Positions 3,366-59,978 are shown, counted from the stretch's first letter. The stretch is 64,000 nucleotides of DNA from Massalongia carnosa (GCA_965645245.1 OZ287073.1:186001-250000), one strand, 5' to 3'. Program-made: numbers and translations. Notes: a model not told the origin generated them from the sequence alone.

Positions 3366-6300
3366 CGCCCCAGAGGTTGTCATCTACTCTACTGTAGGGG
3401 TTTTGAGATTAATCTGACGTTTTAGAGGCGGCCAGTGCCCGGACTATTTCGAAGATGTCGATGCAATTGCCGCAACCGACTGGTATTCCTTTGGACTGCT
3501 ATTGTTGCGCCTCTCGATAGATGGCAGAAACCCAATGGACGAATGAGAAATCATACCGACGGAATAGTCTCAGGAAGAAATACTGTTAGCGATATAGTTT
3601 CTGAAAGACACCGATTGTCTTTCCGCTCTCCTTGGTGACAGCACTGCGTCAGAAAACTCATTGCCCCTTAGTCGTTTACTAGCGAGCCTTTTGCTGAAAG
3701 ACCCCATAAAAAGGCTAGAGGCTATAGAAAAATCCACACTCGAGATTGTACCGTTCCTATCGCAAAATGCCCGTATGATTCGAGACCGCAAATTGGATCT
3801 CGAATCAGATCCTGTCCGTCTGCAATCACAGAACGAATATTTAAATGTTATCGAGCAACTATCAAGTCACCATCGTAGCAGCAATTCGGAATCGTCAGGG
3901 GAAGATAAGGAAGAGCCGGATCTTCTAAATATCTTTTCCTTCTTCTCATCTACAACTTCGAAAAGTGTAGTTCCCAATTTCGTGAGTGACCTCATTCTTT
4001 GGTGTATGTTATGGTGAACTAAAAACGTGGTCTCATTGTCTCCTTATGATTGGCGATTTTGACGCTTAAAATAGATACCCCTCTTTACCATGGGGCGTGA
4101 ACATCCGCTCAACTCAGCCACGCGTTCTCGATTAACTCAGGAACTCCTAACCATATACGAAGATGACAACGGAACTCAACATCTTCACCAGTGCCTCGAG
4201 TGTAATTCTTTGAGTAAAATTGACATGGATCCGCATCGATTGACGCCTGACGGTTTGATTAAGGAGTTACAGCAATGTAGCGAAAGTTTGAAACACACTT
4301 GCTTAACACAGCCATCATAACCCAATTCAGCACTTATCAAATCAGCAGTTCCACGTGCTCTACATCTTACTTCATCCAAAGCCGTTCTTCGAAAGGGTGA
4401 GGCGGCCTACCAACTCTTTTTGACCACTATCTCAGGATTCGGCACCAAGAGAGATATTGCTCGTGCTTTTAAGTTCCTCGAAGATGCTGCCATTTCCGGA
4501 AGTCATTACTGCTGTGTTTGGCTCTGCCGACACTCGTTGTTTATAAATCGAGATCTTTCCCTTCAAATACCTTTTCGAAAATGGCTGGCAATACCGTGTT
4601 GTTTGCAGCTGGCGTTTCATCCGAGGCTTACCTCGCCTTAGCAGAATTAGATCCCATCTTAGCCAGAACAGTAGCTGTGGCGAAAAGTAAAGTCTACAAC
4701 GGCTCTACGGCAAGCTTTGTAAACACGAAATTCAACGCCGTTTGCGATTTGTATGAGACGACCTCGGATCTGTCAATGCAATTTTCCCCGATGGTTGATG
4801 GATCACCTGCAAGACAGGACGAGTTTTTTGAAAACACGTTATTGCATTTAACCGCTGGATCGGAAAACTCCGATACATCAGTCCTAGAATACTGCACTTA
4901 GGTCCTGAAAATCGACAAGAACGTGCGGAACGCCGATGGAGTGACATCGTTGCTCATGGCTTGTCGTGTTGGGAGGGAGGAGAAAATACTGGCACTGCTG
5001 CACCTTAACGTAGATGTCGATTTGGTTTATGCTGGCGGTGAAACTCCGCTGCACTGGCTTGGCTTATTGCCGGACCCTACACGAGTATTGGAAGAATTCC
5101 TCCTACGCGGTGCCGATATCAATGCGCAAGTAACTCAAGAAAGAGCGCTACCAAGTTTTCTTGGCGGGTTGAAAAGTTTATATGTGAAAGGGCCTCCTCT
5201 CAATTGGGCAATGGCTATGGGAAATGAGATATATGTAGACGCTCTCTTGAAAAAAGGGGCGGATATCAATATGCTTGTTCTTGATAAAGTAACGCCTGTG
5301 AGATTTGCTTGCTTCCCTGGAAGATCGCAGTTCCTTGACAGGTTTTCGAGACAACCGGAATTTAAGGTTTCTAGAGAGGATGCGTCTTCAGTTATGACTT
5401 TATGGAGTGATCTGCGAATACTGAATAATTATGCCAAACCCAAAGAACAAGAGAGGGCTCTTAAGCTACTGTTGTCGACACCCATTCCGTTCCGTGATTG
5501 GGCTGAAGTCGATGCTTTTTATCAATACCTTGTCTCAGAGGCTGTGTCTGAGTGTCGGAGAGAAATCCTAGAAATTGTACTCAACGGTCTCAGCAAGAGC
5601 ATGGCGACTATAAAAGACGCAGATCCAAGCAGCCTTAAGCACGCAAAACTTCCGCTCTCACATCCAGCTTGGGTCGAACATCGCCTAGTTCACGAAGCTG
5701 CAGTCAGGGGTGATCCTAAAATTTTACACATCGTTCTCGACTACGGGGGTGACGCAACCAGTATGGACGGGTTTCAACGGAGCACCTTACATCTATTATC
5801 AGTTTTCTCGAATAACGCGGAGTCAGCCGGTATCCTTCTCGACCACGGTGCTCATTCTCTCCTGGACCACAGGACTGAGTTGGATGGCATGACTGCATTT
5901 ATGACGGCAGTGGCTAACTGTAATTTCGCAGTTGCAGATCGTCTTCTTCGCAAAACCCCTACGTAACACCGAGCGCCAGACTTTACTCTCAAGCCGTCTG
6001 ACAGGCATGGCCTTTGCAGAGCTATAGTTGTTCGGCCACCTTATCGCTTGGTCGACGACTGTGGGCGAGAAGCCGGTAGAGTACCTCTGCAGCTTGCTAT
6101 AAATCCGAGAGACCCTGGATTTGCTCTTTATCGTAGACGAGACCAAAAAATACTCCCCCCTTATGATGGCCTGCGGTATAAATTCCGGTGGAGACATACT
6201 CGACACGGAACTATTTGCTTGTTCTCGGAGGAGAAGGACCATCAATCTGCTGCTGCGCCAATTTCCCAAACAGCACCATATCGACAGTAGAGATAATCAC

Positions 6301-6627
6301 GGCAACACTGCACTTCATGTTGCAGCCTTTGTAGGAAGCAATGACATGGCAACTGCGCTTCTGGAAGCCGGCGCAAACCCAAATCTTCTCAACTCCTCAG
6401 GAGCCAACCCCTTGGATGTTTTGTTTGTCTCGGATCCCCCATACCTCTGGGGAAATCGGGCTTCAAAGAAATTTTTGGTGGAGTGTTTTGAAGCTGGAAG
6501 AAACGATATTTGCATGCAGTTGAGGAGTAAAGGTGCAACGCATGCACTTCCTCTGGCAGTGAAGAATGCCTGGGCTACGCACTTACCTTATCCATGGGTT
6601 CGAAAAATGCAAACATTGTCCCCGTGA
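3366..6627 (+). pseudogene. Protein kinase C-lobe - SEL1-like repeat - ankyrin repeat protein, 5'-truncated and disrupted
   Basis: GCC CCA GAG (APE) then a GT..AG intron; DWYSFGLLL (kinase alphaF); LLKDPIKRL; SEL1-like SGFGTKRDIARAFKFLEDAA; ankyrin motifs GETPLHW, GPPLNWA, GNTALHVAA. In-frame stops (e.g. 3544, 4899, 5964, 6025). Confidence 0.72.
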
Positions 6628-7802
6628 AAGTGCCTTGCAAGCCAAACCGCACAGATTGTTGAAGTGAATTAATCACTTGATGCATGTACGAGTATTTTTG
6701 AAGAGAATAATTTTGATTATTGTCTATCGTGGGTGTTTTATGAACATCCATCAACTAAACTACCCTTAGTCTATTCTGGTCAAGCAGTCATCAATTACCT
6801 AACCTTATCTATTAGATTAACGTTTTAGTATAACATCAACACTGATAATCTCACCCAAAATATCTACCAAGCTTGTACACAACGTCAAAAAGAAAAGAAG
6901 CTTGGGGGAAGTCTTCTGCCTCAAACTCACTCATACGAATACCCTGCCCTACCGAGTCGTGTTCAACGACTCGACCCGTCAAACAAGTTTCGACCACTTG
7001 ATATATTCTGCCACATCTAGACCCAAGGCTTTCTGCACACAAGAGTAAGCGGTTTTGCCAGACTTGTGGCTTTCTTGAGTCCCTGTATTTACCTGGCTGG
7101 GCCCCAACCAAACTCCAGTTACCAATCTCGAGAAGCACAACTCCGAGCGCATAGATGCCGTACTGTTTGCGGAATCGCGGTGAGGTCGGAGAAGAATCAG
7201 ACGGCCACAAGGACGGGTGGCGGTAATCGTTGCTACTTCGGTCCAAAGGATTCTCCAGCGAGGGTGTGGTAGGGCGGTCAGGACGCGAGAAGTCGAAACC
7301 TAGCAGGAATGGGTGGGATGGATCGAGGTCTGAGGATGATGAATAAGTCGGTGACAGGCTGAAAAGAACATTTGATGAACTGGCTGCTTTGTGAAGCCAA
7401 TCAGACGCATGAAGCTGAAGAATGATATTACAGAGAGCCGTAGCAATCTGGAACCGATCACCCAGGAACGGAGGCGTCGTTGTGCCATTTATGTACTCAT
7501 GGAGAGAGTAAGGGCGAGACGATATTGATGTTGGCAATGCAGCGTTTGATGGTTGGGGTAGTCTTGACATAGCTAGAGGCCTAAACAGAAGACCATATCT
7601 CTCAATAGACTTTACTGCAAGATACTTCGTGTCTTTGAAGTAGCCAATGCATCTGAGAAGCCCGAAATCGGCTGATCTCTCCGAGCTAAGTACCACAGCA
7701 AGCGTCTTGATGCGCGATCGTATAGTTTTCATGTCATTGAAATTTTGTTGAATTGCACTGCCCTAGTTCTGGAAATTTCTATGCTTAGTCAGCTGAATGT
7801 AT

Positions 7803-9944
7803 CCCTTCGTCTGGCAATTTGGCAGCCACCTTAAATAGGCTTAGTGAGATACCGTAGGGCTGAGTTGCGAACTTCAAAACATTCTCCCCTTTTTTTGTAA
7901 ATAAGAAGGTAAACATCAGTTGAAAATCATTAAAACATCTACAATTTCTTTAGAATAATCATGAGAGGCATTGAGATAGAAGTTCCTGACCAATCAGACG
8001 CTTTGCCCCCCTCAATTCGGAAAGAACAGGCCAAAAAGAATAAACCCAGCGTACAAAGCATAATTGACTCCATGCCCCCTCCGTCATCAAATTATTGTCC
8101 AATTTCGATCCCATTTCGAAAACCACAGCCGGGCGAGACGTTGCGCTTGATAAAGCAGACTCCTTTCAGTTTATTCTGCCTCTTCTTTAGCTTTGAAATG
8201 CTTGAAATCATAGCTAAAAACACCAATCTTAAAGCGAAAAAGAAGTATGCCCTAAACGACATCAAGAGACGTCAATGGCATGACACCACTTCTTCTGAAG
8301 TAGGAGCTTTTCTGGGAATTCTGTTATATATGGGGTATACACTGATGCCACGTCTTACTGACTATTGGAACACGTCTCCTAAATTTACCATACATGACAT
8401 GGTGATTCAAGCCATGAGTCTTTGAAGATGGGAGCAACTCAAGCGATTTTTGAAGATATCCAACCCCGACGAAGATGAGATCATTGATACTCGAGGCCCT
8501 GATTGGTGGAAAAAGCTGGAACCATTGGCCACAGACTTTCGAAAAGCATCAAAGAAATACTGGATTCCTGGAAGTCATGTGTCAGTTGACGAGCAATTGA
8601 TTTTATTCAGGGGTAGGAGCTGCCATACTATGCAAATAGTCACCAAGGCGGCTGGTGTAGGCTTCAAAATCTATAGTTTATGTCAGGAAAATTATCTTTT
8701 TGACTTCTTATTTACCTCCAAGGTGAGTAGAAAAGGCCTCAATTTGCATCGTACTAATTGCAAGACAGGTGTCCAAAATTAGTGAGTTAAAAACGCCTGG
8801 ACAATTGAAATTTCCGACAACCAAATGGGATTTGTCTCCTTCCTCCCTAGTCGTCATTCAACTGGCTCGAAGTTTACCGTCTGATGAAGGCTTGAAATAC
8901 GTCATCTTTCTGGACAACTTCTTCACAAATACGAAGCTATTCAAAGCTCTGAAAACTATTGGAATTGGTGCCTGTGGGACTTCTAAATCAGGATGCGGTT
9001 TTCCTGTTGATCTTCTACGTCTGAGGGTTGCAGCCACCAAGAATAAGGACTGGGGAAAGAAGGCATTGATGACGGTACCTGCAAATAAAAGTAAAAAATC
9101 AAACATTGATGACGGGGACATTCTGTGTATGACATGGGTGGATTTAAACACCGTGCAATTCATGACCACGGTTCATACAATTGAGGATTTGAAGACTTCT
9201 TTCTACAAGAATTCCCGTCGACGTCATGGAATTCCTGCAAATTCCAGAGTCATCGTTGATGATGAAGAAGAAAAGCTTCCATTTCCCATGCCCATCGTGG
9301 AATATAACCAGCACATGTGCGGGTCAGATAGGAATGCTCAGCAAAGAGCATATTATTCACCTCAATGATCTGATCGTCGCTACTGGTGGTCAATTTTCAT
9401 CTTTCTTCTGGATGCAGCCGTTCTAAATGCCTTCAAATTGTGGAGAAGTCTGTATCCGAATTCAAAACTCAGCCATTTGGACTTTCAAAAAGAAATAGTA
9501 AATGCCCTACTATCCAATCAAGCCGGTGCCCTACGGAAACGTCCGACAGATGTCATAGTTACTACTAATCAAGACGTTAATAAAGACGTCGAGTCAACAT
9601 GCAAATGGGAGCATTTGAATAAGAAGGACTACTGTTTGGCCTGCAAAAGGCAAGTGCCAAGACTCAAACGACGCCGACCACTTGCGGAAATTGATGAAAA
9701 TTGCACCAAAAGACGACGTGCAAGTCAGACCAGATGGCAATGTAAGAGCTGTAGACCATGTTGCAAAAAGGAGGCATGTTGGGAAATTTTACATAGATCA
9801 TGAGGTGTGATTGAGGTGTTGTACCCATTATCGTTGAAAAGGGAAAATCTGATTGGCCAGATTAAAGTTATTAGTCATTACCCGGAGACGGCGCGTGTAA
9901 AATTGAATATTACCTAAATGGCTGCCAAATTGCCAGACGAAGGG
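7803..9944 (+). mobile_element. piggyBac-superfamily DNA transposon
   Basis: Perfect 26-bp TIR CCCTTCGTCTGGCAATTTGGCAGCCA (7803-7828 / 9919-9944); flanks GTAT / ATAT; encloses a piggyBac transposase. Confidence 0.93.
7961..9803 (+). pseudogene. piggyBac transposase with premature stops
   Basis: VSVDEQLILFRGR, FLDNFFT, YNQHMCGSD motifs; Cys-rich C-terminus (CLAC...CKSCRPCCKKEAC); likely intron ~8723-8769; TGA stops at 8423 and 9366. Confidence 0.9.
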
Positions 9945-11389
9945 ATATTAGCCGCTCTTCTCCCTCTATAGAACAATCAACCGTCTCAAGTTTCAACAAA
10001 TTTAATGATCGGTCCACATATCTCCATTCCAGAATCACGGGTTCATTGCTTCCATCCGCCCTTGCGACTGAGGCAATGAATCTATTCTGGCCGGCTTTCT
10101 TGGTATCTCCAGACTTGAAACTCACCAAATCCGTCACACTGGTTGACGGTAGCAGGAATTCATTTGCAAAGGATGGACTCGACTCGTTCACCACTGCGGT
10201 TAAGGCAGCTCGCCTCAAATCTGCGCATGAAGCGAGCAACTCCGTTGTTTTGTTCCGTTTCGCTTTGTTCTTCATTTTTGACAGCGTTGCCTGATCCAAA
10301 ATCCCCTGAAGCACTACAGATGGTAAACCCTTTGCCAGCGCAATCCACATTTTTGCGGGCAACACAATCCACAGGCTCTCATTCAACAGTCGCAAGTCAT
10401 CAACAAGTCTCCTAAGCTTGACGCTGTCGCTCAGTGCCCAACGGAGCTTTCCTAGCCGTGATGTTGAGACGACGATCGAACGTTCCATCGTCGTCCGTTT
10501 GACTTCCGCAATATTCACCGCGGCACAGCTGCGTATATCATCCAGATTTAGATCCTGAAGCCCAATCATTGGATCTGGGCTTGAATCCTGACCAGCCTCG
10601 CAAATTCTGACCCCGTACCGAATCATGATTAGGTCGATGTCGTCCAATAACAATTTGATAGCGTCGAGACGCGCAACAACGAATTTCTACGTCTCGTATA
10701 ATTCTCTCAATAGCAATTGGCACCCCTGCGCCTGAGAAATCCCAAGATATCTGCCCCAGAGCTGCAGCCCCCGTCTCTCAACTTCAAGATGCACACCTAG
10801 TAGATGTGCGTCTTTGCAGATGTCATTTGCAGATCGGATGAAAACATCATACGCTCTATTGCAGGTCTGGAACAGAGAGAGCAGGCTCGCAAGACCTATG
10901 CCTCCGATGATGAGTTCCACCGGCATTGTGAGCCAGAGAATACTATGAAAGAAGAAAGTGAAGTCACAAATAATAAAATAATCATCCACTTCTCCTTCTG
11001 ACGAGTACGCTACTTTCGATTATCAACAAGGTACATTATTTCTGGTTAGCTGCGATTAGTTACGATAATGCTTCTAGTATTCTATGTAAATTCTTATAGA
11101 TGAATTGGCTAAGTAAACGTAAATATTTTTTTCTTTTTAATTGTGTCAAATTAAAATATTATTGTTACAGCGCCGCCTGCTCATCATGACTCAGCTGTGC
11201 TCTCATCAGTTTCAGTATCTATTGTATCTACGAGGATAGTTACAGACCTGACGTGCGGGAAAAGGCTGACTTAGTAGGGGAGAACAACTGTTTGTTGCGA
11301 AGACGACAGTACTATTCTTCTCACTACAGAAAAGAATTATCTTCAAGAGAACTGATCGGACAAGCGTCATGTCCAAAAACGTCCGATGT

Positions 11390-11441: not shown

Positions 11442-11493
11442 GAAAGATTTTTATATGTAAAAGTTTCTAATTAACAAAATTAAACTTATCATC

Positions 11494-12132: not shown

Positions 12133-13965
12133 AACAAGGGACTGAAGATCTAGTCCCTCAAATTAAGGACCAGCCCATTGATCCAGAGAAAAAATTTTCA
12201 CAAGCGAGAATGAAGAACATCATCAGCTACCATCACTATCAAAAAGCAATTCACACGAGCAATCATCTAGGAAGAAAAGGAGGAGGATTTTTTCCATAAA
12301 ACCGCGCTCGGAGGAAACCAATAATCGCTATCCGAAAAGGTGTAAGGCCTTACGGCAAACACCGCAAACGATGCAGTTCCAGAAAACTGTACCTGAAAAA
12401 AACAGTCCCATTTTTGAGAGGCTGGAAAAAGGGCACGAAGCCCTAGAAAGCGAAGAGAAAGAGAGAGAAAAAGACGATCCTATCAGTTACTGGGCCGCGA
12501 ACCATACCTGGCCCGACAACTTTGCAGAGTCTCATGCAATGTCTTCGAACAACACCAACAAACGACCGCGAACGTCGGATCATTCTCAAAGCAGCAAGGA
12601 TGAAAAATCCCGGAGCTATTCTCAGAGCCGTAAGGATGGAAATTTCCCAGAGCAATCTACTAAATCGTACGAAAAGTACATTTTCACACAAGGTCTGGAC
12701 ATGAATTATATCAAAAGCAGAGAACTTGTTTCTCCAGACAGCAAGGCGGCTTGCCAAGATCTTCGAAATATGGAATGCGTGGCCATCTCTCCTACTGTTT
12801 ATTCCGAGGACAAAATACTCCAGGTGATCGACCTTTGCCAGAATGCAAATGAAGCAATGGTAAGCCGAGATGTTACGACGCTGATTTTGCCGCCAATCAA
12901 AGCACTACATCTAACGGACGAAGCAAATATTTTCAAAGATTTTACCGATCAAGTTAGAGCGCAGTGGCATGAGAGTTGGGTTCTGGCAGGACCTCGGCCT
13001 GAACCTGACCTGGCCATTGGCTTCCTCCATTCCGCCTTTACGGTATCAGAAAATGAAAAATAAACCAACTACACATCCTTTGAAAACTTGACGCGATCAA
13101 CCGATGAAATGTGTTTCCCGTTCTGATGTGCGAGGTCGAGTGTGGCAACAGGGGACTTGACCGGCAGAACATGCACAGCTGCAGTGTGGCGGTCAAGGCG
13201 CTTCTCAAGCTCGAGCAAAAGGCGAATCAGTACCGAGAGGACAAGCAATTCGAGAGCTTGCTTGGCAAGATCGTTGTCTATTCTATCTCACACGATCAAA
13301 AAGATGCCCGCCTCTACGGGCATTATGCCTTGGTTGAAGAAGAAAAATGGACGTATTATCGCCATTATATTCGGCATTTCGACATTGCACACGAGGAGAG
13401 CCTGCTGGCCCTCCACAATTTGCTCGCAATATCCTAGTGATACACGCTTCAAAACTGTTGAAACGGCTTCAGAAAGCAATTGCAGCTCTCCTAGTCTCCT
13501 CTACACTATTATTCTCTGCAGGTACGATGAACTTGGAGGATGACTCGCGAGGCTTCCAACAACCCTCGCAGGGTCGAGATGCCGAAGGTTTCGCGACTCC
13601 CGTTCTTCCTGCCAGCGCCCAAAAACTGTTCGACGAGCAAAAGGAGCAGATGGACAAGCTCCTTCAGCAGATGGAACGGCAAAGGGAGGAGAACAAGGAG
13701 AAGGAGGAAAGGCAAAGGGAGGAGATGGAGCAGCAGAGGAAAGAGAACAAGGAGGAGGAAAGGCAAAGGGAGAAAGAGGAAAGGCAAAGGGAGGAGATGG
13801 AACAGCAGATGGAACGGTAAATGGAGGAGAACAAGGAGAAGGAGGAAAGGCAAAGGGAGGAGATGGAACGGCAGATGGATTAGCTAAAGAAGGAAAAGGA
13901 TGAGCTGGGAGAGCAAATCAAGGAGCTCATAGACATACTCAAACAAAAGAAGAGCTATGTTTAGA
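12133..13965 (+). pseudogene. Degenerate, 5'-truncated copy of the DUF7924-like gene at 23657-25782
   Basis: Near-identical translated blocks (KDDPISYW..NHTWPDNFAESH, GPRPEPDLAIGF, YSISHDQKDARLYGHY); stop at 13061 and frameshifts near 13110-13160 and 13400-13430. Confidence 0.9.
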
Positions 13966-14206
13966 GTACTGAGTGCTCATCCGGCCGAGCTGATAGTTAC
14001 CTGGATTGATTCGTGAACCATAATTTTAGAATCTAGTGATGATTCTGTTGAACCTAGTGAGGTTCGTGAATAGAGGTGAACTCTTGATAATATGAATATC
14101 TAGAAGAAAAGCTCTATCTCAGTAGCTAATATTACATTATGTGCGGCGAGCTAGCCCAAACTAGGCCTAATAAGGCCATGCTATCCCTTAGGCCCCTGAG
14201 CCACCA

Positions 14207-17200: not shown

Positions 17201-17702
17201 AAGCCTTGGGTGAAGGCATAGTCTTGAAGACGAGTCTTTGCCTCCTCCCAAGACGAAATAACTCATTCTCTTGCGGAGGGAGGAGGTGAGGTGGGGGTAG
17301 AAGGGCAATGGCATGTTGCTTCCGTGCATCCAAAGAAGTGGGATCGAACTCCATCGCGATGAGGAGTAGTAAAATATATAATATGAGGTATAGCATAAGT
17401 GGAAGGGGAGATCTAGGGAGGGCAAAGGGTTAGGACAAGGGCAAGGGCAAATGGTAAGTGAGGGTGAGGGTGAGGGTGGGGGTGGGTGAGGGTATGCTTT
17501 ATTAGACCGAGTAGGGTAATTATTAGTAGCAATAACACGTCATACGATTTAAACCGAAAAGAGTTTAGTGTGCTGTTGGCAGTTGCATTACTAGCTTGTA
17601 CGCACCCTGGATAAGCAGTGAAATGGCTGTTTACTAGCAAAGATTTACACAAGGGGGGGGGGGGGGGGGACGGTCGGGGGAGGACTGTCCCTAAGCACCT
17701 CG
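14207..17702 (-). mobile_element. Mutator-like (MULE) DNA transposon
   Basis: Imperfect ~110-bp TIRs (CGAGATGCTTAGGGACAGTCC...poly-C...TGTGTAAATCTTT); 9-bp TSD GAGCCACCA at 14198-14206 and 17703-17711. Confidence 0.93.
14371..17354 (-). pseudogene. MULE transposase (FAR1-like, MULE DDE, SWIM-like), frameshifted
   Basis: LDCTRH...CPYRLRL...EHNH; ETDATFNTNKLNLPL; ILGDFAAGL; LQLCTWHAAEAI; STQRSEGLH; CELPLRYGLPCKCWL; spread over several frames. Confidence 0.9.
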
Positions 17703-17881
17703 GAGCCACCACCTAAGATCATCACTTACAGTAGGTTCACAGATTCTAGAATTCTGACATGATAGGTACGTGCTTCTTAGTGAAAAACGAAGTTCTTCCC
17801 TACGGGTTGTTCAGTCTCCGACGAGAGAGTTGAGAGATGCAGTTATAAGGAAGAAGGTGGAATAGGAACAGGTATTATCAG

Positions 17882-33066: not shown

Positions 33067-33102
33067 CCAGTCATTTCAAAGCCTTAGGCGTGTTTCTTGG
33101 CT

Positions 33103-48028: not shown

Positions 48029-48334
48029 CGTGCGGCCGCCAAAGAGGGTATCCGTGGTATGTAGAACGCTCGTTGATCAGCAAGTCGCTCGCGGCGCAAA
48101 ACGGGGACAGGCAGGCTTTTTGCAGTTCGACTGAATGGGTCGAGGAGAGAAAATCGTGGTATGGAGCTTGGTCACGGGCGATATTGTCCATATACAGCGT
48201 GACGATTTTGCAGGGTAACGCCTATAAGTGGGTTTATACCCCAAAGTCACAGGCGATAAGGCCACTTTTGGAAGGACCGCCAAGCCAGCATTTTTTACGC
48301 TAAATCTCAATCCCGCGGCCCCAAAAAAAAAATC

Positions 48335-49741
48335 GGCCTCGGATAAGCCACCCGTTCGGGCCAGCCACCCCCATCGAAAATATCCTGGCCAACTATCCCC
48401 CTCCACCAAAAGCAAAACAACATCACCACGATGCTTCTACCATCCCCAAAATTAACTAAAAATTATCACTATCCATACGCATTTCTTTCCAGATGGCCTT
48501 TGCGAACTTCACTTTACCATTAAAAGCATGATATCGCTCCTTTTCTCCGGCTAATGTTTCCTCTTTTTGCTTTTTGTTCACCCACAGTTAGCACCCTCGC
48601 TTTATCACACCCCTTTCTAGACGCCTTTTGGCGTCGCTGAGCCTGTATTTCAACTAGTTCCTGATTGGTATGCCGTTGGATAACTCTATCAGCCACGTCA
48701 TTCAATGCGGTTGTTTGAAGTAATTCAACATGCGCGCGGAGAGATGGAGTTACACGGGTTTACAAAGCATCGCTAGCTACCTGAATGCGTTTGTTCGTTG
48801 TGGGGGTAGTGGTGACGATGTCGCGAGGTGAAGGAATGATAGATCTAGGCAATGTGCCTAAAACATGCTCAGGATTGTATGGAATAAGACCTCCCCCCCG
48901 CCATGCATTCATGATATTGATGAACTTCATAGCTTGCTCTCTAGCCTCCTAAATAAGGTGTGGGAACTCCAATTTCGAGACATTTACGGCCCCGTAACGA
49001 GACCGCGCAGAAACAAGCGTCTTATAAGCCTTAGATAGCGGGCCAAAGACACCCACATCTAATGGCTACAATAGATAAGTAGAATGAGGTGGCAAACAAA
49101 GGGCTATGATTCTCTCCTGGTCGCAGAACTTAATAAAGTTCATGGATATATGACTTTCATGACCATCCACAATCAACATTTTATAAATCCCCTGTGTGCG
49201 TTTTGTCTGCGGATGGAAGACATGTTCTAGCCAATGAAAACCTATCTCTGCATCTGTCCAACCATTAGGGCTGACTTGCAGAGTGGTCAAAGGATCAGCA
49301 ATGGCCTCTAACCAATCTTTTTGAACCTGACTACCCTGGAAAATGTTATAGGCAGGGAGAACTGTTCCGCGAGAGGATATGCATTCGACTAAAGAAACCC
49401 AGTCCCTATTCCCTGGATGCACATTGAATGGGGTTGTTTTCCTCTTGACTATCACTTTAGAACTATCCGCAATGCCCATGGCAAAACCCTTTTCATCCAT
49501 ATTGTAAATATCTTCATCTGCGACTCCATACTTTGCTCGGGTGGTCATGTACAGTTCAAATCATTCCTTCAGAATTTTGGGATGACATGCGTCTTTTCTC
49601 TATTGTTCCAAGTTTCTTTTGAATTTAGTTTTGAATTGGAGATGTCTATTCATGAAGTTTTTATACCAATGATGTCCTAGGGGTTTTGAGTCCCCTTTTG
49701 CTTCCAGCAGACTTTTAGTCATGCTCTCGAGGTGTTGAATA
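48335..49741 (-). mobile_element. pogo/Fot1-type Tc1-mariner transposon remnant, 5' part lost
   Basis: IYNMDEKGF, NRDWVSLVECIS, SPNGWTD, LIVDGHESH, CLPPHSTYLL*PLDVGVFGPL; GCCACCC-rich TIR-like end near 48335-48372. Confidence 0.85.
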
Positions 49742-50973
49742 CTATTATGCGGGGTCAGAAGTTTCCGGATAGATGAGAATTTTTTTTAGTTGAAAAGTAA
49801 AAAACCACCTTTCAATCCATAATGCCACTACCACGTAGCTCTAAACAGCCCAAAACTACGCGCAAAGAAGTGCCCGTCATAATCAGAGCTGAAATGTACG
49901 GTATGGGTCTCGCCGGCGCCTCCGTTAGTACTATACACGAAAAGTTTCCGCAATGGGGTCGTTCCAAAGCACGAGAAGATTGTCATTTGATACGAGCAGC
50001 GATTAAATCGGGGTCAAAGGGTCGTCGACAGCCTCTGGGGGAGTTGCAAGCTAACATTATGCCCGATGTTTCTCGAACCACCGTGAAACGACGTCTTCGA
50101 GATCAAAACGTTCGTAAATGGCGCGCAGCTAATCGTACGATGTTAACGGAAGCTCATATTGGTGATCGGCTGGGCTGGGCACGTCAATATGAGGATGTTT
50201 CGGAGGATGAGTGGGCTTAAGTGTGTTGGTCTGATGAGATGTCAGTTTGCAAACAGGATGGGAGTGAGAACGTGTGAGTTTTTCGACTTCCAAATGAGAA
50301 ATGGGATCACGAATGCTTCGAACCAGTCAACAATGGATCGAGAGTCACAAAGATGTTCTAGGGCTACTTTGCAGGCAATCGACGGGGTGGTTTGACCTCG
50401 TTGGAGCCCGATCTAGATCCTACGGGAAAGAAAGGTATCACAGGGTTGATTATACTCGATGCTTATAAAGAACGTCTTCCTACCATGCTCGATGACGATT
50501 CGGGCATTGTTTTTATGCAAGATGGAGCCAAAACACACAAAATTCGAGAGACAATGGACTGGTTCAAAGAAAAGGGGTACACGGTCATGGATTGGCCGGC
50601 CTACTCCCCCGATTTGAACCCCATCGAGATGGTATGGAAGAAATTGGAGAACATAGTCTTTAGAAGACACCCCGAATTACGCATTCTGTCAGCAAGTGCC
50701 CCAAAAATTCAAGAGGCCATTGTTGATGCTGTCTTGGAGGATGGGACTACATAACGGAGGCGTTTTTGGAAAGTTTAATGCGGTCAATGCCTCGTCGAGT
50801 GCAAGCAGTCCTGAATGCAAATAGAGGTTATACTAAATATTAGTTATATGTAAACAAACAATCGCATCATTTTACTGAAACGTTGATTTTGTAACAGCAA
50901 CAATAGATAATTCATACTGCTATGAAATTCGTTTAAATTCGCCTATCCGGACACTAACGACCTACCATAATAG
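49742..50973 (+). mobile_element. Tc1-like transposon with disrupted transposase (49822-50843)
   Basis: Imperfect ~31-bp TIRs CTATTATG...TCCGGATAG; TA on the left only; VSRTTVKRRL, WSDE, FMQDGAKTH, WPAYSPDLNPIEMVW, SMPRRVQAV; stops at 50218 and 50276. Confidence 0.88.
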
Positions 50974-51115
50974 AAAGAAACGCGTCAATAAACAGATTTC
51001 ACTCCACGACCCGGCTTCTCGGTGTCATTTGAGGAAGCGGAACGGGATGAGTGGAAGGAGGAGAGCACAAGGAGTGATGCGAACCGTTGCCGGATAAGAT
51101 TCAACTGCGAGAAAC

Positions 51116-51325
51116 TCAAGCAGTCCGAAAAGCCAGCTGACAAAGATTGGCAGTGACAGGCACCCCTTTACTGGTTGTCCTCTCCAATTGTGTCTTGAGA
51201 GCGCGCGCCCAGCCCGTTTGCGGCCAAACATTCTGAAGATTTGCGAGAGCATGTAAAATCCGGCTCGAGATGTAAAGAGAGTTGATCCCGGTAGAGAAAG
51301 CCGAGAAGATGAAAAAACATGTCAT
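51116..51325 (-). pseudogene. Amino-acid permease fragment
   Basis: IFSAFSTGINSLYISSRILHALA...RTTSKGVPVTA matches the conserved APC permease segment. Confidence 0.6.
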
Positions 51326-52678
51326 AGACGAGCTTTCATGTCATTGAGTACCTATCCCATCACGATATAAACACCTTACCCATCTTGTCGGCCCTACGCT
51401 TCTTTCTCCACTTCTGGCCCGCTCCTCCAGCGACGGCTTCAGACAGTCATTGCCTGGTCCATAACCACCTCTCGAAATCAACAAGTCCTGATGTTATGAT
51501 CTCCCTTCTCCACAGCTCGAGCAACCCTGCCTATCATAGAAACTGATAGTATTTTTTCTCCTCCCTTCATTTCTTCTGAGCATAATCCTTTTTAAATGCA
51601 ATTTCCAAGAGACAAAATTATCGTAAGTAGTAGATCTTTCAGCAACACTGGGCGCATAGACTCATGAATGATACACCGTTCCGATGGCTCGACTGTACTC
51701 ACTTCGACTTAATTCGATTTTCGCAACTCTCATCAAAGCATGAGCATGCGCATATAAAAATATCATGTCTTGTTATCGCAGATAGCTACTTAGGGGTGAA
51801 GGAAGTGCTTCGGGCCGAGAAATCCTGAGCATTCGTCGAGCATCAGCGCTTTAAGTGAAATTACGAGCCTGAGGATTCAGGACTCACTCTTTCATCAACT
51901 CCAGATTGTTGCTAAGTATGATGATCCAGCGATTGTTGATAGCGATTATTATTCTGCATCAATTTATTGACCCATGAAGTACACTTCTCATATCATGACG
52001 AAAGAGTTCATCCGATTGCGCAAGCCTTTGTCATCGTTGTTCTGCTCTCATGTGTTAAATGCTAATTCTTGTCAAAACATGCCAACCAGCTAACATTGGA
52101 CTGAGCGATTGCGTGACTAATTCATGTTTGTGTTAAAGAGCAGAAAAATCGTTGCACCCGAGGTAGATGCTTGCCAGCAAGGAGGAAACCAGCGGGGACT
52201 GGGTGTGATATATCTGTACCGTGTACATGTGTCTCGAGACTTCGTTAGTCAGACTTGTTGCATCTAGGCCGAGGTTGAAACTCGTTGATTGGTTATGTTT
52301 CAGGGACTACTTACCTTCTCAAATGAAAAGTCCCCTTATCGCAGTTCTTCTTTCACTCCGCTTGATTCATTTATCCTTTCTGTGCTGTTGTCGGGTTATT
52401 ATGCTTTGTATCGTTTGTGATCGGTTGCTGACCTGTTCTACTATCGTCTTTTCCTCTGAAGCATTGCCTGAGATGCAAATATAACATCTCTCTCTCTTAC
52501 TGAAGACAACATATTAATAATGGTGAAGTTTGCATTACTCTACGCTACATCATATGATTCTGCCTATGCTTCTCTTCCGAATATCTCCCGGTTAATATTA
52601 CTCTCATTGCTTTAACTCCAACATTGATTTTTCGAACTCGTGATCTCTGAACTACGTTAGATAAAACATTAAAAACTA

Positions 52679-53866
52679 ACGTAACCCACCACTAGTTCGT
52701 CACACACCACTACTTTAAACACCAGAATTGCTTCATTTACCTTGCTGTCGCCAGCTGCAACGTCGTCGATATGAATAACTTCTTGAATCTAACTAAAGGC
52801 GCCTCTTATTCAGCCATTAATCTAACCCCGAACCGAAGGAATTGTTTCAATTGGTCGCCCAGCGCCCAAACCAACCACCCTTTTTGATTCAACTTCCCCA
52901 TGCCTTCCGAGTCTCCCCAGGCGAAAAATCTCTTCGTAATAGCTTCATGATCGACAGTATTAATTATAGTGAGATGAAGAGTGTGATTTTGAATGAGTAG
53001 TTCGATTAGCTACAAACAAGATCAAAATCAAAGTAGTTGGAATTATCAGAGGCCCAGTAGAAATCATCAGAGGCCCAAATGAACATAAAAGCTCTTTTTT
53101 CATCAGATATTTCTCCCAATCTTCGTTGTCNNNNNNNNNNNNNNNNNNNNNNNNNNNNNNNNNNNNNNNNNNNNNNNNNNNNNNNNNNNNNNNNNNNNNN
53201 NNNNNNNNNNNNNNNNNNNNNNNNNNNNNNNNNNNNNNNNNNNNNNNNNNNNNNNNNNNNNNNNNNNNNNNNNNNNNNNNNNNNNNNNNNNNNNNNNNNN
53301 NNNNNNNNNNNNNNNNNNNNNNNNNNNNNNAAGAGGATGAACTGAAGGCTGAACGTAAGCGTGAACGAGTCTCAAAGGCCATGCAGAAGGAGGAGGAAAA
53401 GAGGTTGAAGATGTCAAATCAAGGGCCATCGAAAAGAAGACGAGGTAATTTGCCTACAAATGCTCCATTTACCTCTCAAAGTCAGATGGAGTTTACCTGG
53501 GATTCCACCCAAACACAATTGAATTTTGTATGGGATTCGCCTACCCCGCAAGCTCGTTCTTTGGAAGCATCTCCGAGTCTTTACGGGTCGAGTTTGAACG
53601 CGCCTTATTTTATCAGGCCGGTGGTGAGGGAGGGAAGTCCTGATTTATGAAGACATAAATCTTGAGAGTTGAAGTTCGACGACGAGGTTTTTCGGATGGT
53701 AATAGAAGGGGGGTGGGGGATGTAATTACTCTCGGGTGACGATCAGACTGTTTTCGAGCGACGAGGCTATTCAGATTTATTTAATTCATCATTATTGTCG
53801 CTGTCATTGATGATGACGATGAGGGTATTTAGATATTCTGGTGTTTAAAGTATTGGTGGGTTACGT
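52679..53866. mobile_element. pogo/Fot1-like TIR element spanning the assembly gap
   Basis: TIR ACGTAACCCACCA / TGGTGGGTTACGT plus inner TACTTTAAACACCAGAA inverted match; TA on both sides (52677-52678, 53867-53868). Confidence 0.8.
53131..53330. other. Assembly gap (200 N)
   Basis: Run of N. Confidence 1.
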
Positions 53867-54139
53867 TACCTCTTTCTTTTACTTCAAGTCCTTATGAAAA
53901 TTTTCAACGCGAAAAAGATACGACAACCTTTAGGAAAAAATGGCCAGAAATTAAGCAGATCGAACGATAGGAAAGCAATGCTAATCTACTACGCTAGGAT
54001 TTCTCAATTACAATCTCCTTCATCTTAAATTGTGTCTTGCATTCCGCATATTTCTTTCAAGAAGAAAATAGAAGACTATTTGAAAGCAACTGTAAATGAA
54101 GCATCTCTTTTGTATTGATGATTGATGAAGGACTTGATA

Positions 54140-57100
54140 TCAGCAAGGTTTCATGGCTGCCTCCAGCAACTGCAAAACCCTCTCTTGAGATTTCCTCAAT
54201 GCCTGCAGCGAGCTGTCTTTCACGATCATGTTCTCTCCTTCATCCAACAACCACTGCATCGTCTTCTCGTAACCTTCCCTTGATGCCTGCAGCGAGCTGT
54301 CATTGACGTTCACCCCGTTATTCAATAAAAATTGCACTGCCTTCTCGTGATATCTCGATGATGTAGTCAGTAATACGATATCGTCAATTTTCCATTTTTC
54401 CCCCAATCTGCTCTGTATTATCCTTATGTGACCTTCCGACAATGTAATTACCAGCAACTTGTCGTTAACTTGCGCTCCATTTTTCAACAATAACTGCATC
54501 ACCTTCTCTTGACCATATATGCATGCATTCTGCAGCGCGCTGTCATTTACTTCCGCTTCGTTGTTCAACAGCAACTGCACGATTTTCTCGTGACCTCCGC
54601 ACGATGCCGCCTGCAGCGCGTTGCCATAGTATCCGCCTTGCGCGTTCACGTCCGCTTCGTTGTTCAACAGCAACTGCACGATTTTCTCGTGACCTTCGGA
54701 CGATGCCGCCTGCAGCGCGTTGCCAAAGTATCCGCCTTGCGCGTTCACGTCTACTTCGTTGTTCAACAGCAACTGCACGATTTTTTCGTCATCTCCGACC
54801 AATGCCGCCTGCAGCGCGTTGCCAAAGTATCCGCCTTGCGCGTTCACATCCGCTTCGTTGTTCAACAGCAACTGCACGATTTTCTCGTCACCTCCGACCG
54901 ATGCCGCCTGCAGCGCGTTGCCATAGTATCCGCCTTGCGCGTTCACGTCCGCTTCGTTCTTCAACAGCAACTGCACGATTTTCTCGTGACTTCGGGACGA
55001 TGCCGCCTGCAGCGCGTTGCCAAATTGTCCGCCTTGCGCGTTCACGTCCGCTTCGTTGTTCAACAGCAACTGCACGATTTTCTCGTGACCTCGGGACGAT
55101 GCCGCCTGCAGCGCGTTGCCAAAGAGTCCGCCTTGCGCGTTCACGTCCGCTTCGTTGTTCAACAGCAACTGCACGATTTTCTCGTGACCTTCGGACGATG
55201 CCGCCTGCAGCGCGTTGCCAAAGTATCCGCCTTGCGCGTTCACGTCTACTTCGTTGTTCAACAGCAACTGCACGATTTTCTCGTCACCTCCGACCGATGC
55301 CGCCTGCAGCGCGTTGCCATAGTATCCGCCTTGCGCGTTCACGTCCGCTTCGTTCTTCAACAGCAACTGCACGATTTTCTCGTGACTTCGGGACGATGCC
55401 GCCTGCAGCGCGTTGCCAAAGTGTCCGCCTTGCGCGTTCACGTCCGCTTCGTTGTTCAACAGCAACTGCACGATTTTCTCGTGACCTCCGGACGATGCCG
55501 CCTGCAGCGCGTTGCCATACTCTCCGCCTTGCGCGTTCACGTCCGCTTCGTTGTTCAACAGCAACTGCACGATTTTCTCGTGACCTCCGGACGATGCCGC
55601 CTGCAGCGCGTTGCCAAAGTGTCCGCCTTGCGCGTTCACGTTCGCTTCGCTGTTCAACAGCAGTTGCACGATTTTCTCGTGACCTTTGCACGATGCCGCC
55701 TGCAGCGCGTTGCCAAAGTGTCCGCCTTGCCCGTTCACGTCCGCTTCGCTGTTCAACAGCAACTGCACGATTTTCTCGTGACCTCCGGACGATGCCGCCT
55801 GCAGCGCGTTGCCAAAGTATCCGCCTTGCGCGTTCACGTCCGCTTCGTTGTTCAACAGCAACTGCACGATTTTCTCGTGACCTCGGGACGATGCCGCCTG
55901 CAGCGCGTTGCCAAAGAGTCCGCCTTGCGCGTTCACGTCCGCTTCGTTGTTCAACAGCAACTGCACGATTTTCTCGTGACCTCCGTACGATGCCGCCTGC
56001 AGCGCGTTGCCATCCTCTCCGCCTTGCGCGTTCACGTCCGCTTCGTTGTTCAACAGCAACTGCACGATTTCCTCGTGACCTCCGGACGATGCCGCCTGCA
56101 GCGCGTTGCCAAAGTGTCCGCCTTGCGCGTTCACGTTCGCTTCGCTGTTCAACAGCAGTTGCACGATTTTCTCGTGACCTTTGCACGATGCCGCCTGCAG
56201 CGCGTTGCCAAAGAGTCCGCCTTGCCCGTTCACGTCCGCTTCGCTGTTCAACAGCAACTGCACGATTTTCTCGTGACCTCCGGACGATGCCGCCTGCAGC
56301 GCGTTGCCATCCTCTCCGCCTTGCGCCTTCACGTCCGCTTCGTTGTTCAACAGCAACTGCACGATTTTCTCGTGACCTCCGGACGATGCCGCCTGCAGCG
56401 CGTTGCCATCCTCTCCGCCTTGCGCGTTCACGTCCGCTTCGTTGTTCAACAGCAACTGCACGATTTTCTCGTGACCTTCGGACGATGCCGCCTGCAGCGC
56501 GTTGCCATAGTATCCGCCTTGCGCGTTCACGTCCGCTTCGTTGTTCAACAGCAACTGCACGATTTTCTCGTGACTTCCGGACGATGCCGCCTGCAGCGCG
56601 TTGCCAAAGTGTCCGCCTTGCGCGTTCACGTCCGCTTCGTTGTTCAACAGCAACTGCACGATTTTCTCGTGACCTCCGTACGATGCCGCCTGCAGCGCGT
56701 TGCCAAAGTGTCCGCCTTGCGCGTTCACGTCCGCTTCGTTGTTCAACAGCAACTGCACGATTTTCTCGTGACTTCCGGACGATGCCGCCTGCAGCGCGTT
56801 GCCAAAGTGTCCGCCTTGCGCGTTCACGTCCGCTTCGTTGTTCAACAGCAACTGCACGATTTTCTCGTGACCTCCGGACGATGCCGCCTGCAGCGCGTTG
56901 CCAAAGTGTCCGCCTTGCGCGTTCACGTCCGCTTCGCTGTTCAACAGCAACTGCACGATTTTCTCGTGACCTCCGGACGATGCCGCCTGCATCGCGTTGC
57001 CAAAGTGTCCTCCTTGCGCGTTCACGTCCGCTTCGCTGTTCAACAGCAACTGCACGATTTTCTCGTGACCTCCGGACGATGCCGCCTGCAGCGCGTTGCC

Positions 57101-59978
57101 AAAGTGTCCGCCTTGCGCGTTCACGTCCGCTTCGTTATTCAATAAAACCATGATAATGGAAAGATGACCGTATTCACTGGCAATATGCAGTATTGATTCA
57201 TTATTGTTATTGTGTGTCTCGACATCGAGAACAGCTGTTTCCCACCAATCCAATATGATTTTATTGAATCCAAACGCTGATATTGCCAGTAAAGTTAAAG
57301 AAGATGGACTAATACTATCAAATACTTTATATACCAGACTGGTACTAAACACCTGCACATCACGATATCTCTTATATATATCCTTGTCTATTATTTCATG
57401 CCAACTCTTGTACGCTGGGCTGCTTTCGTTGAAGGATCCAAGGAATTGCTTTAAAATTATCGTTAAACGAGAATCAATCCTTTCTTTATCGTGGTTTTGT
57501 ACGTGATCTGCCCAACAGAATCTTGCGTAGCGAACAATGTCGTCGAGTTCTTTGTTTTCGTCTTGCAATTCGGTATTCCGTTTTTGTTGAACTGGATCAT
57601 TCAACAAAGACAAACATACTTTCGCTATTAGAGCATTCGCATCATAGTATCCCCAGTGTCTTTCCAGATATTCTTGAACTGATAAGTGGGAAAATCGGCA
57701 GATATGAAGCTGAGAATCAACGACGATTAAGTTTTGACAAGCGTCGAGAACAAAATCGATATCGACATCCACAGGGTCGACAACGTCCGTGTTGTGATCT
57801 TGACAAACCCCAGCGATTAATGCTTCTGGCGATAAGGGGACAACGGAATACATAATCCATTGAAATGCACGGTCGGCAATTTCGGGCGCACTTCCATCCT
57901 GAGCCTTAATTCTGCGATATATTTCGTCATATGCCGCATCAAGGTCCTTAGGAAGTTTGCCTAGTCGCTCTTCAATATCGCGTCTACGGGGCAGGAGTTT
58001 ATGTAGTTGAATAATCTGCAGAGACGCCCACTGAAACCTATTCTACTCTTAGAAAATCAATGCTAGTGACCGACGGTTATAGAAACTTACATTCCGTCGC
58101 TTTTGCTCACCAACGTCTCGGAGATGAGCTCTCTAAGTTCGGAACTTATCTTGCAATACCATTCCTTTTTATCTTTGATCTTGTCATCAACAAACTTTGC
58201 TATGTCCTTCTCATTATCCGTTGCCCTGATTTCCATGTTTGGTCCACCACTAAATCGGTGTTTGATATCTAGGTCTGGCCTGCTCGAGATGAAAATTTTT
58301 ACCAAGTTAGAAGACTTGCCGCTCACCAAGATGTCTAACATTTCCATGAAAGGGGCCCTCGTTTCCTTGTTGCACTCATCCAAAGCGTCCACAACTAGCG
58401 TGATTTGAGGATAAATTTCAACTAGCTGACGTAGAAGATCAAAACTTTCCTCAATCTTGAGCCCTCCTGAGGCAAAGGCATTTCTCTGCTTCAAATCATA
58501 CCTTTGAACGATCGGACGCTGGATCTTATTGGTGTTTTCGACTCCGGATAGTTGTCGCACAAAGCTGCTCATGATTAATGCTGGGTCTTGACGATTAGGC
58601 TGATTGCGATCGCAATAAAAGTAAGCCAGCGCCTCGTCATTGGGCTGCTCAGCAAATGTTTTAATCAAGTCGTCGACGACTGTTGACACAAGTTTAGTTT
58701 TGCCAGCGCCAGCTAATGAACACAGTCAGTAAGAAATGCTAGATAAATTTATACACACTTACGCATTCCGTGCAGCCATAATATTGTAGATGCGCTAGAC
58801 GCACGCCATTCTACATGTCGTTCATGATTCAGTAGCCACTTTCCTGTTCCTTTTGTCCATCCTTTGCGAGCAACATAGTGGATTTCCTCGTATGGAATGT
58901 CGGATACCCAAAAAAGTATTTTATTTCGCTTGTCCACTTCATATTCATCGCTCAAAGCACTCACTCGAGCATCGACGCGCAAGATTGGGCTTCTCAAGTC
59001 TTCAAATAAGCTCTTTAGCTTCATATTTGCCTCCCGATCTTGTATGCGATCCAAAATTCTTGCCTCCGTATCTACTTGGGTTTCTAAGTCCTTACAACTC
59101 TCAACAAATTTGAGAACTTTCGAACCCAACACACTCCCCAGAGTTCGAGATACAGATCCTTTATCATATAAGTTCTTCGCACGGGCAAGGAATCTTAACA
59201 CAACGAGATACAAGGCTGTCAACGCCGTTGTCAAGTTCTCCATAGCAAGTGTGGACGGTCCGGATACCTCAGAAGAAAGGTAAAGGAGTTCATATATTGT
59301 GCACCGATTGATAAGTTGCGTCACCTTCTCTCCGCCAACAAGTAAAGCTGCCATCAACTCGCTTTCTCCCACCGCCATCTTTTTCAGAGTTAAATCTTTT
59401 CAAGATCATGTCAAAGGAAGATCCAATCTCACCTGAAGCAAAAACCTGACTCCCGCCCATGGCAACGCAGCATGAACGGGATCAAAATTTACCGCGACGT
59501 CTCCAATTTCCTTGAATTTGTTGAGCCCAAAAATAATTTTCTCCGCTAAATCGCGAAGGATGATCTCTCGGCCGTGAAAATTGAATTTCCATCGTTTCTT
59601 GAGGCATTCATCTCGCTTCTGCTGAACGACATCGTGTAACTGTTCCACGATCTCTAGTTTTAAATTCACGGATATTTGCTGAATAGCTGCTTTCTCCTCT
59701 GACGATAGTTTCTGCAGCGCAATGTACCAGAGACCACTCTGTACATTCTGAGCTTGCGCACCCGTTGAGGAAGATGCTTCGATCGATCTCGCCTCTTCAG
59801 TTGAATCCGGAGCAGATTTAGAGCTCACCTTGACGGTTGACGTCAGAATAGAGGCAGAATCAGGTTTCGTTGATTGTGTTGTGGAAGATCCTTGCACTGA
59901 AACTCCGGTAGAGTCCTGTTTTGCCTTACTAGCCTTGTGACTAAACAAGGACCTACTTTCACGCGAAGAGCTTTCCAT
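54140..59978 (-). CDS. Fungal NLR: NACHT N-terminal helical domain - NACHT - ankyrin repeats
   Basis: [29 protein letters not shown]-loop WLHGMPGAGKT split by an intron; Walker [30 protein letters not shown]; 26 conserved ankyrins. Introns 59379-59432, 58713-58762 and 58038-58090 give an open frame. Confidence 0.93.
54550..57135 (-). repeat. Highly conserved 99-bp ankyrin tandem array (26 units)
   Basis: GCGTTCAC at 54642 and at 57117 are 2475 bp = 25 x 99 apart. Confidence 0.95.

Follow-up and report, generated by a model that had tools for sequence, protein, structure and literature searches.

Patatin-like phospholipases (PLPs) as well as NOD-like receptors (NLRs) are standard auxiliary genes of Starship transposons (PMC9156397). 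PLP-1/HET-Z1, an NLR with patatin-NB-ARC-TPR architecture, guards SEC-9, and killing on non-self SEC-9 needs both its lipase and its P-loop (PMC12881547). In addition, an NLR expansion has been described in Podospora pseudocomata, which lacks repeat-induced point mutation (RIP) (PMC13449251), and NLRs are expressed in lichen thalli (10.1101/2024.08.16.608140). In this study, we analyzed 64,000 nucleotides of Massalongia carnosa (GCA_965645245.1 OZ287073.1:186001-250000; hereafter the window, G000:C7:186001-250000 in an assembly of 52 Mb in 25 contigs), in which two long NLR genes (NLR1 and NLR2), a Starship captain (DUF3435 tyrosine recombinase) and two DUF7924 genes lie among transposons. Codon statistics indicate that the NLR families have been under purifying selection, whereas the captain linked to NLR1 has drifted.

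Comparison With Described Systems

The region is similar to those described as Starship, "Starship-like" or Derelict (PMC9156397, PMC11162782): a DUF3435 captain points into patatin and NLR cargo (both cargo types were found beside the captain with Pfam), transposons are nested in it, and the copies are degraded. However, no ends or target-site duplication were found here, the examined captains are dead, there are about 20 captain loci whereas the described elements are low-copy, and patatin and NLR are fused into one gene. Since no element ends were found, the region is "Starship-like" in the terms of PMC9156397, and with no intact captain among the 13 examined it does not qualify as an active Starship. 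The Tangerine Starship of Xanthoria (PMC13486527) is also a lichen-fungal Starship with PLP and NLR genes, and the retention of a cargo gene despite degradation of the copy has a precedent in ToxA of the degraded Horizon (cited in PMC13486527). By contrast, Xanthoria has RIP, and the parts of that paper cited here mention no multi-copy NLR cargo.

NLR1 shares the architecture of PLP-1/HET-Z1, and its lipase and P-loop motifs are intact. However, patatin NLRs average 1.7 per species (PMC4986451) against 30 close loci here, and the arrays here are long and highly conserved internally. The high-internal-conservation (HIC) NLRs of Podospora (PMC4986451, PMC13449251) have near-identical repeats, variation in unit number, hypervariable positions, shared units and an association with transposons, as found here, but P. 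anserina is without highly similar intact duplicates (PMC13449251) whereas 17 open near-identical paralogues occur here. NLR1 and NLR2 are 14.8 kb apart with only transposon genes and remnants between them, which agrees with the NLR clusters of Sordariales (<40 kb, <8 genes between; PMC12258605); there, 16 of 272 were paralogous copies, whereas whole blocks are duplicated across chromosomes here. Furthermore, the SPOK drivers (PMC6660238) resemble DUF7924 in a PD-(D/E)xK-type fold (predicted for DUF7924) on Starship-type cargo with a conserved Lys at the motif position, but DUF7924 is without their kinase and cysteine-cluster domains.

PLP/NLR Starship cargo, the retention of cargo genes in Starships that have degraded, NLR clusters and hypervariable arrays are known from the literature. 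What is unusual is the copy number of NLR1 (30 loci) together with a linked neutral control; a literature search that left most subscription journals uncovered found no comparable multi-copy Starship-linked patatin NLR family.

Selection on the NLRs and the Linked Captain

In DNA searches of its own genome, NLR1 has 30 loci at 91-100% identity (40 of 43 candidates were scored, and all 29 non-window loci were fetched). NLR2 has at least 19 loci at 80-100%, which is a lower bound because the best 40 of 614 candidates were scored; all 18 other listed loci were fetched. NLR1 is open at 17 of its 30 loci (11 of 20 in clade A and 6 of 10 in clade B), where open is judged from the reading frame of the copies and not from their splice sites.

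The non-repeat part of NLR1 gave an omega (ratio of nonsynonymous to synonymous substitution rates) of 0.48 over all 30 copies (codon models; twice the log-likelihood difference, 2dL, 85), and the patatin domain gave 0.33. At the same 15 loci, omega was 0.977 for the captain (2dL 0.0 against 1), 0.567 for NLR1 (2dL 19.4) and 0.41 for patatin, and this contrast persisted without three near-identical loci; terminal and internal branches are taken together in these values. For NLR2, omega was 0.55 over 18 loci (one partial locus dropped), 0.59 over the 13 closest and 0.47 for NACHT, below 1 by likelihood-ratio test. At 13 loci where both genes are linked, the NLR is open in 11 and the captain in none (Fisher P = 2e-5). 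In addition, a whole NLR1 frame survived in 2-4% of neutral simulations, and in the N-terminal exons of open NLR1 copies all exonic indels are multiples of three.

Four-fold-site divergence is alike in the captain (4.2%) and NLR1 (3.4%), so age does not explain the difference in omega. An earlier note on this DNA had offered either a birth-and-death region with selection on the NLRs or their recent arrival. The former is supported (omega 0.48-0.57 for NLR1 and 0.55-0.59 for NLR2 vs 0.98 for the captain), and the latter alone is rejected by the divergence values. The substitution patterns thus indicate that selection, and not only recent arrival, keeps NLR1.

Turnover of the Sensor Arrays

The number of TPR units in NLR1 varies from 3 to 40 per copy and that of ANK units in NLR2 from 2 to 30. 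With 93-94% identity between units, both arrays are of the HIC type (repeats >85% identical, number varies). Positions 13, 26, 33, 36 and 37 of the 42 in the TPR unit show hypervariability in each clade and also inside the window gene itself; the five were chosen after looking, and they are the same five in both clades. In clade A, piN was 0.415 and piS 0.097 at the five positions, whereas piN was 0.016 and piS 0.076 in the framework. By analogy with PMC4986451, the variable sites are assumed to lie on the concave binding face. There were 321 distinct units among 471, and some were common to paralogues.

The two ends of contig C7 mirror each other, and the mirror copy of NLR1 has only 4 differences from that of the window over the 6.7 kb toward the captain (99.94% identical) and is 1% different on the other side. 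Its array has 25 units against 23 in the window, in a different order, and only 3 of 18 distinct window units are shared. For NLR2 the comparison gave 26 vs 19 units, with 7 of 21 distinct units shared, whereas in a trio of near-identical NLR1 loci the arrays are nearly alike. These comparisons indicate that mutation of the flanks is much slower than change in the number and order of units in the sensor arrays. Moreover, one locus of the NLR2 family (L072, G000:C19:260200-270199) has 11 ANK units whose frame continues into TPR units of two kinds, and the later of these resemble the units of NLR1; the N-terminal part of this hybrid is broken.

Genomic Distribution of the Copies

Within 350 kb of a contig end lie 27 of the 30 NLR1 loci, against 10.8 expected, and (with lengths of C3 and C9 approximated for the distal counts of families other than NLR1) 16 of 20 captains, 34 of 60 DUF7924 loci and 69 of 122 NACHT loci. 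Crypton (6 of 17) and piggyBac (0 of 8) transposons show no enrichment at contig ends. A bias of NLR orientation toward the centromere was considered and rejected (19 of 30, P = 0.2). A further NACHT family, recognized by a frame pattern of 305 aa, is represented near contig ends by about 16 loci with near-identical scores (C16:3k, C10:20k, C10:56k, C2:148k, C12:146k and others).

About 95% of the window has a further copy in its own genome with the inverted C7 copy excluded (DNA searches, intervals collected by hand). The order captain, NLR1, DUF7924 pair, HeLo gene is repeated on several contigs, and a comparison of broken genes across copies showed that dead genes were duplicated along with their stops. 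The C7 ends are about 99% alike in inverted orientation (about 2.17-2.57 Mb vs 0.19-0.52 Mb); the likeness is direct for 66 kb or more, and paired matches extend it to about 0.5 Mb. RIP indices gave no RIP signature in the window pieces. The three RNA polymerase largest subunits occur once each, so that the assembly cannot be diploid throughout.

The earlier note had treated the window as a defence island, to be doubted if such domains were no more frequent here than in other repeat-rich regions. This comparison with the genome background went partly against it: NACHT loci number 0.29 per 64 kb in distal 350-kb zones vs 0.09 in the interior. The window is not unique, the whole block being multi-copy Starship-type cargo, and it is an ordinary slice of a multi-copy distal compartment.

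Gene Content of the Window

The features are as follows, with coordinates counted from the first letter of the window.

1-3361, plus: Copia-type long terminal repeat (LTR) retrotransposon coding region, broken, truncating the 5' part of the next gene (Pfam Pol_BBD, gag_pre-integrs, SH3_retrovirus; 97% copies elsewhere)
3366-6627, plus: kinase-remnant/SEL1-like/ankyrin gene, broken (Pfam ANK; Sel1 E = 0.026; kinase motifs by eye)
6851-10925, minus: HeLo-domain gene with a kinase-like C-terminal part, broken by TAG and a piggyBac-like insertion (Pfam HeLo)
7800-9947, plus: piggyBac-like DNA transposon (DDE_Tnp_1_7; 29-nt terminal inverted repeat; 8 copies at 99%)
12182-14036, plus: DUF7924 copy b, broken, putative catalytic Lys changed to Glu (Pfam, codon alignment)
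14207-17702, minus: Mutator-like (MULE) DNA transposon with terminal inverted repeats (MULE, AFT, FAR1; inverted ends; copies)
17784-19292, plus: ankyrin and SsdA-type deaminase gene, frameshifted (Pfam ANK, SsdA_C; several frames in 5 of 5 copies read)
23657-25531, minus: DUF7924 copy a, open, 624 aa from the first Met, with a C-terminal coiled-coil repeat (Pfam; PD...ExK, Lys codon 24437-24439)
26330-27535, plus: C2H2 zinc-finger gene remnant (weak zf matches under the cut-off)
28409-28684, plus: TPR remnant with stops (tblastn E = 4e-7)
30383-32385, minus: gene remnant without family match, common to several captain-linked copies
34010-39347, plus: NLR1, patatin-NB-ARC-TPR, 1725 aa (introns 34411-34469, 35054-35103, 35734-35784)
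36498-39309, plus: TPR array of NLR1, 126-nt units, 93% matches, five hypervariable positions (repeat analysis)
39847-40038, minus: N-terminal remnant of a second ANK(-SsdA deaminase)-type gene (homologues with ANK, 2 of 5 also with SsdA_C)
40350-42535, minus: Starship captain, DUF3435 tyrosine recombinase, broken by stops and frameshifts (Pfam; alignment to intact homologues)
44698-48350, minus: Crypton-type tyrosine-recombinase transposon (NDC10_II, GCR1_C; at least 17 copies)
49066-50754, both strands: pogo-type (DDE_1, minus) and Tc1-type (plus) transposase remnants (Pfam)
53131-53330: assembly gap, 200 N
59978-54140, minus: NLR2, DUF7708/NACHT_N-like, NACHT and ANK, 1893 aa (introns 59432-59379, 58762-58713, 58090-58038)
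54552-57142, minus: ANK array of NLR2, 26 units of 99 nt, 94% matches, variable unit positions 9, 10 and 19-21
61261-64000, plus: second Copia-type element, continuing past the window edge

A Pfam scan of 215 open reading frame (ORF) stretches of at least 72 aa over the whole window found no housekeeping family above the cut-off, and ARAGORN found no tRNA gene in it, which bears out the absence of housekeeping genes in 64 kb noted before. A fragment of an amino-acid permease (51119-51340) had a sub-threshold Pfam score. The scan agreed with most of the earlier inventory: HeLo, ANK, the SsdA_C deaminase, two DUF7924, patatin, NB-ARC, TPR and NACHT/NPHP3_N-ANK are all present, and the TPR remnant was recovered at 28409-28684. 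NLR1 and NLR2 each give one open spliced frame with three GT-AG introns, and the frame of the DUF7924 copy at 25531-23657 is open, while the remaining host-type genes are damaged by stops, frameshifts or insertions. The label "NFX1-like" did not hold, as the ORF at 31972-32385 (a 138-aa fragment) matched no family in Pfam, PDB sequences or Atlas. For the kinase-SEL1-ANK gene at 3366, the ANK part was confirmed by Pfam, Sel1 was weak, and the kinase came from motifs read by eye only. Transposon genes make up about 33% of the window by the boundaries adopted here; the earlier inventory had been without the DUF3435 captain among them.

In the kinase-remnant gene, the stops at 4899 and 5964 enclose a frame of 354 aa that is the same in 5 of 5 copies read. 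The TAG stop of the HeLo gene occurs in the window and the 4 copies read, with the piggyBac-like insertion in the window copy, and two HeLo-related loci (C20:114k, C4:2641k) have a HeLo match without the stop.

Structure of the NLRs and Splicing of NLR1 Relatives

The patatin domain of NLR1 has the G-rich loop, GxSxG and DG motifs and is followed by the NB-ARC P-loop and the TPRs; the patatin motifs and P-loop are nearly invariant over the 30 copies. The array ends mid-repeat, without the capping half-repeat found in most homologues. This abrupt end at 39310 was considered as an insertion breaking NLR1 and was rejected, the junction being common to 18 of 20 clade-A loci with no downstream half in the window. 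A 1-nt deletion in the window NLR1, also found in several copies, shortens the tail by 23 aa. Upstream of the gene lie 17-nt tandem repeats and a 46-nt hairpin (32879-33248), with a related short copy downstream (39560-39627). Two tail-to-tail inverted pairs of NLR2 occur around a MULE fragment (L065/L069, C15:209-225k; L070/L067, C4:2621-2636k).

The intron at 34411-34469 is skipped with GT..AG ends in contigs from three studies (two metatranscriptomes and one probable RNA run), and intron 3 is also skipped in contigs of both metatranscriptomes. The NLR1 family is thus transcribed somewhere, the RNA contigs being those of relatives. For 33900-36500, run X1 contains 0.68 of the words of the segment, and X21 and X22 (same study, same organism label) contain 0.00. 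Presence/absence variation of this segment is possible but unproven, a share of 0.00 being no proof of absence.

The closest patatin proteins are from Pseudocyphellaria (90%), Vezdaea (84%), Psora (80%) and Pycnora (75%), all lichen-forming fungi, and the closest homologues of the captain and DUF7924 are likewise from lichen-forming fungi. In addition, a lichen metagenome is one of the five read sets that match best. Judging from these matches, the host is probably lichen-forming. The patatin segment (34471-35052) is 75-90% identical to lichen fungi of distant lineages and about 60% identical to most other fungi, a pattern that would fit horizontal transfer among lichen fungi.

Origin and Spread of the Region

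The captain lies tail-to-tail with NLR1, as does the captain sequence retained at 18 of 20 clade-A loci. Alignment to intact homologues showed that 13 of 13 captains (NLR1-linked ones only) are broken by stops or frameshifts, with no lesion common to all, and the captain tree is star-like with 90% terminal branches. The captain points into the cargo, and sequence common to the copies extends 0.8-2.2 kb upstream of it, with no clean element end. Two candidates for larger units were rejected: a 120-bp repeat (19524-19643 / 44638-44700) as Starship terminal inverted repeats, which is missing there in other copies and occurs separately, and 44470-60870 as a single insertion, the link being a small independent repeat.

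On balance, we think it probable that a derelict Starship burst, captain death and block duplication produced this region, with the NLR families under purifying selection while the captain and DUF7924 drift. The left two-thirds of the window would be the cargo block, comprising the captain, the ANK-deaminase remnant, NLR1, gene remnants, the DUF7924 pair and the ANK-deaminase, HeLo and ANK genes; it would be studded with later transposons and adjoin a second multi-copy NLR. A single burst, some 2% deep in divergence, would have brought the element into distal zones, rich in repeats, on many chromosomes. Its captains would then have died singly, block duplication between chromosome ends would have copied live and dead genes, and the duplicates would survive because there is no RIP. 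Captain drift against NLR purifying selection, array turnover, the multi-copy state and the distal location are supported by statistics computed from the sequences.

Several observations weigh against this history. Flank alignments within the one genome showed nested insertions and revealed neither an element boundary nor a target-site duplication or empty site, so that transposition is what we infer. In the DNA fetched for the 10 clade-B NLR1 loci there is no captain; several of these copies face a Crypton-type (NDC10_II) recombinase head-to-head and have several kb of flank in common (L053/L054, L043/L044, L045-L048, L051, L055), and it might be that cargo is carried by Cryptons in this genome. 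A match between captain distances and NLR distances was rejected as not significant (Mantel r = 0.16, P = 0.12), and an LTR-like repeat is equally enriched in distal zones (19 of 22). In addition, an omega of about 0.55 means weak constraint, and clade-B NB-ARC has an omega of 1.0. Broken clade-A copies have the same omega (0.54), and thus much of the constraint signal may predate the present. Of the 19 listed NLR2 loci, only 2 retain full length together with the shared tail, and in 7 the frame stays open across NACHT and 18 or more ANK units. Finally, the RNA contigs come from relatives, mostly 90-99% alike, and not from the window copy.

Without any burst, a single derelict Starship in a subtelomeric zone could have been copied by ectopic recombination or segmental duplication, with NLR selection unchanged. 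Such copying agrees with the 99% inverted copy at the other C7 end, three loci that share flanks at >99%, the dead genes copied with their stops, and a captain omega of about 1 over the entire tree. However, captain-side flanks mostly differ between copy groups, orientation to the contig end is not significantly biased, no captain lesion is common to all copies, and the captain tree is star-like. We regard this explanation as rather unlikely.

DUF7924 and Further Explanations

A structure model of DUF7924 (predicted local distance difference test, pLDDT, 87) suggests a restriction-endonuclease-like fold with PD...ExK, as the nuclease fold of the earlier inventory would predict. In a structure search with the model, the top two rows were mitoribosome chains (Z 11.5 and 10.4), followed by BpuSI (Z 8.9, root-mean-square deviation 3.9, 152 aligned), DrdV (8.7) and HsdR (7.5); Foldseek gave no match at E <= 0.001. 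The Pfam content is DUF7924 and a coiled-coil tail only, without a Spok kinase domain. Omega was 0.905 over 27 copies (close loci out of about 60 in the family), not different from 1. The open frame is thus no sign of maintenance, and the suggestion that selection maintains this nuclease-fold gene is unsupported.

The Lys of ExK (window codon 24437-24439; paralogues L092-L111) is the most variable of 400 codons (K in 9 copies, Q in 6, E in 6, H in 4, N in 1 and D in 1). It is replaced in 18 of 27 copies, whereas the Asp and Glu of the motif do not vary and other fungi nearly always keep the Lys. The signal is post hoc, with 0.0006 per site and 0.23 expected over all sites. By analogy with SPOK3, in which K240A abolishes killing (PMC6660238), its loss would fit a possible repeated disarming of a toxic nuclease; the best structural match named for SPOK3 in that paper is the HsdR structure also matched by the DUF7924 fold.

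These two likenesses are what would favor a selfish killing or addiction module, in which DUF7924 serves the element as a Spok-like toxin, the NLR as an incompatibility factor, and the host disarms them. Yet the Lys signal was found post hoc, the Spok kinase domain is missing, and NLR constraint persists at loci with dead captains, which is unexpected for a purely selfish module. This makes such a module quite improbable.

Alternatively, the NLRs could be young and not yet hit, with arrays homogenized mechanically. Indeed, 13 of 30 NLR1 and most listed NLR2 loci are broken, and the open DUF7924 shows that an open frame need not mean selection. However, by four-fold divergence the NLR is as old as the captain, yet the two differ in omega and survival, and the indels in the N-terminal exons of open copies keep the frame. 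The omega contrast and the frame survival (0 of 13 vs 11 of 13) contradict this neutral explanation, which we hold to be very improbable. An assembly artefact, with uncollapsed haplotypes or mixed thallus individuals inflating the copies and with arrays mis-assembled, could draw on the mirrored C7 ends, some near-identical pairs and trios, the 200-N gap at 53131-53330 and the difficulty of assembling tandem arrays (PMC11761791), but it is hardly credible given the single RNA polymerase subunits, copies that mostly differ by 2-9% in different flanks on 16 contigs, and an omega result that stays without near-identical loci.

Possible Implications for Recognition in Lichen-Forming Fungi

Under the derelict-Starship history with selected NLRs, each NLR1 copy would, by analogy with PLP-1, use its own TPR array to bind a ligand that is non-self or modified self, oligomerize via NB-ARC and kill the cell via the patatin lipase. 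The family would then serve as a scattered repertoire of receptors in which many sensors share one effector. The defence role is inferred from domain content.

A bolder form of this proposal, which we put forward only as a doubtful conjecture, is that a lichen-forming fungus keeps at its chromosome ends a dispersed library of dozens of near-identical lipase-killer NLRs domesticated from a Starship. Their arrays would be rewritten all the time by unequal and ectopic recombination, even across repeat types as in the in-frame ANK-TPR hybrid, giving many specificities for partners, parasites or rival mycelia, and the element would also have carried a hitherto unrecognized DUF7924 nuclease toxin that the host disarmed repeatedly at its catalytic Lys.

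If this is true, one thallus would hold many recognition specificities. The finding touches two open questions, namely how large fungal NLR repertoires arise despite RIP and whether the "auxiliary" patatin and NLR genes of Starships help the element or the host (PMC13449251, PMC9156397). It also offers a paired natural test, as at the same loci the mobility gene appears to decay neutrally and the receptor does not. Furthermore, about 30 near-isogenic receptors with different arrays would allow sensor specificity to be mapped against a constant effector, and roles of NLRs in recognizing the lichen partner would become testable.

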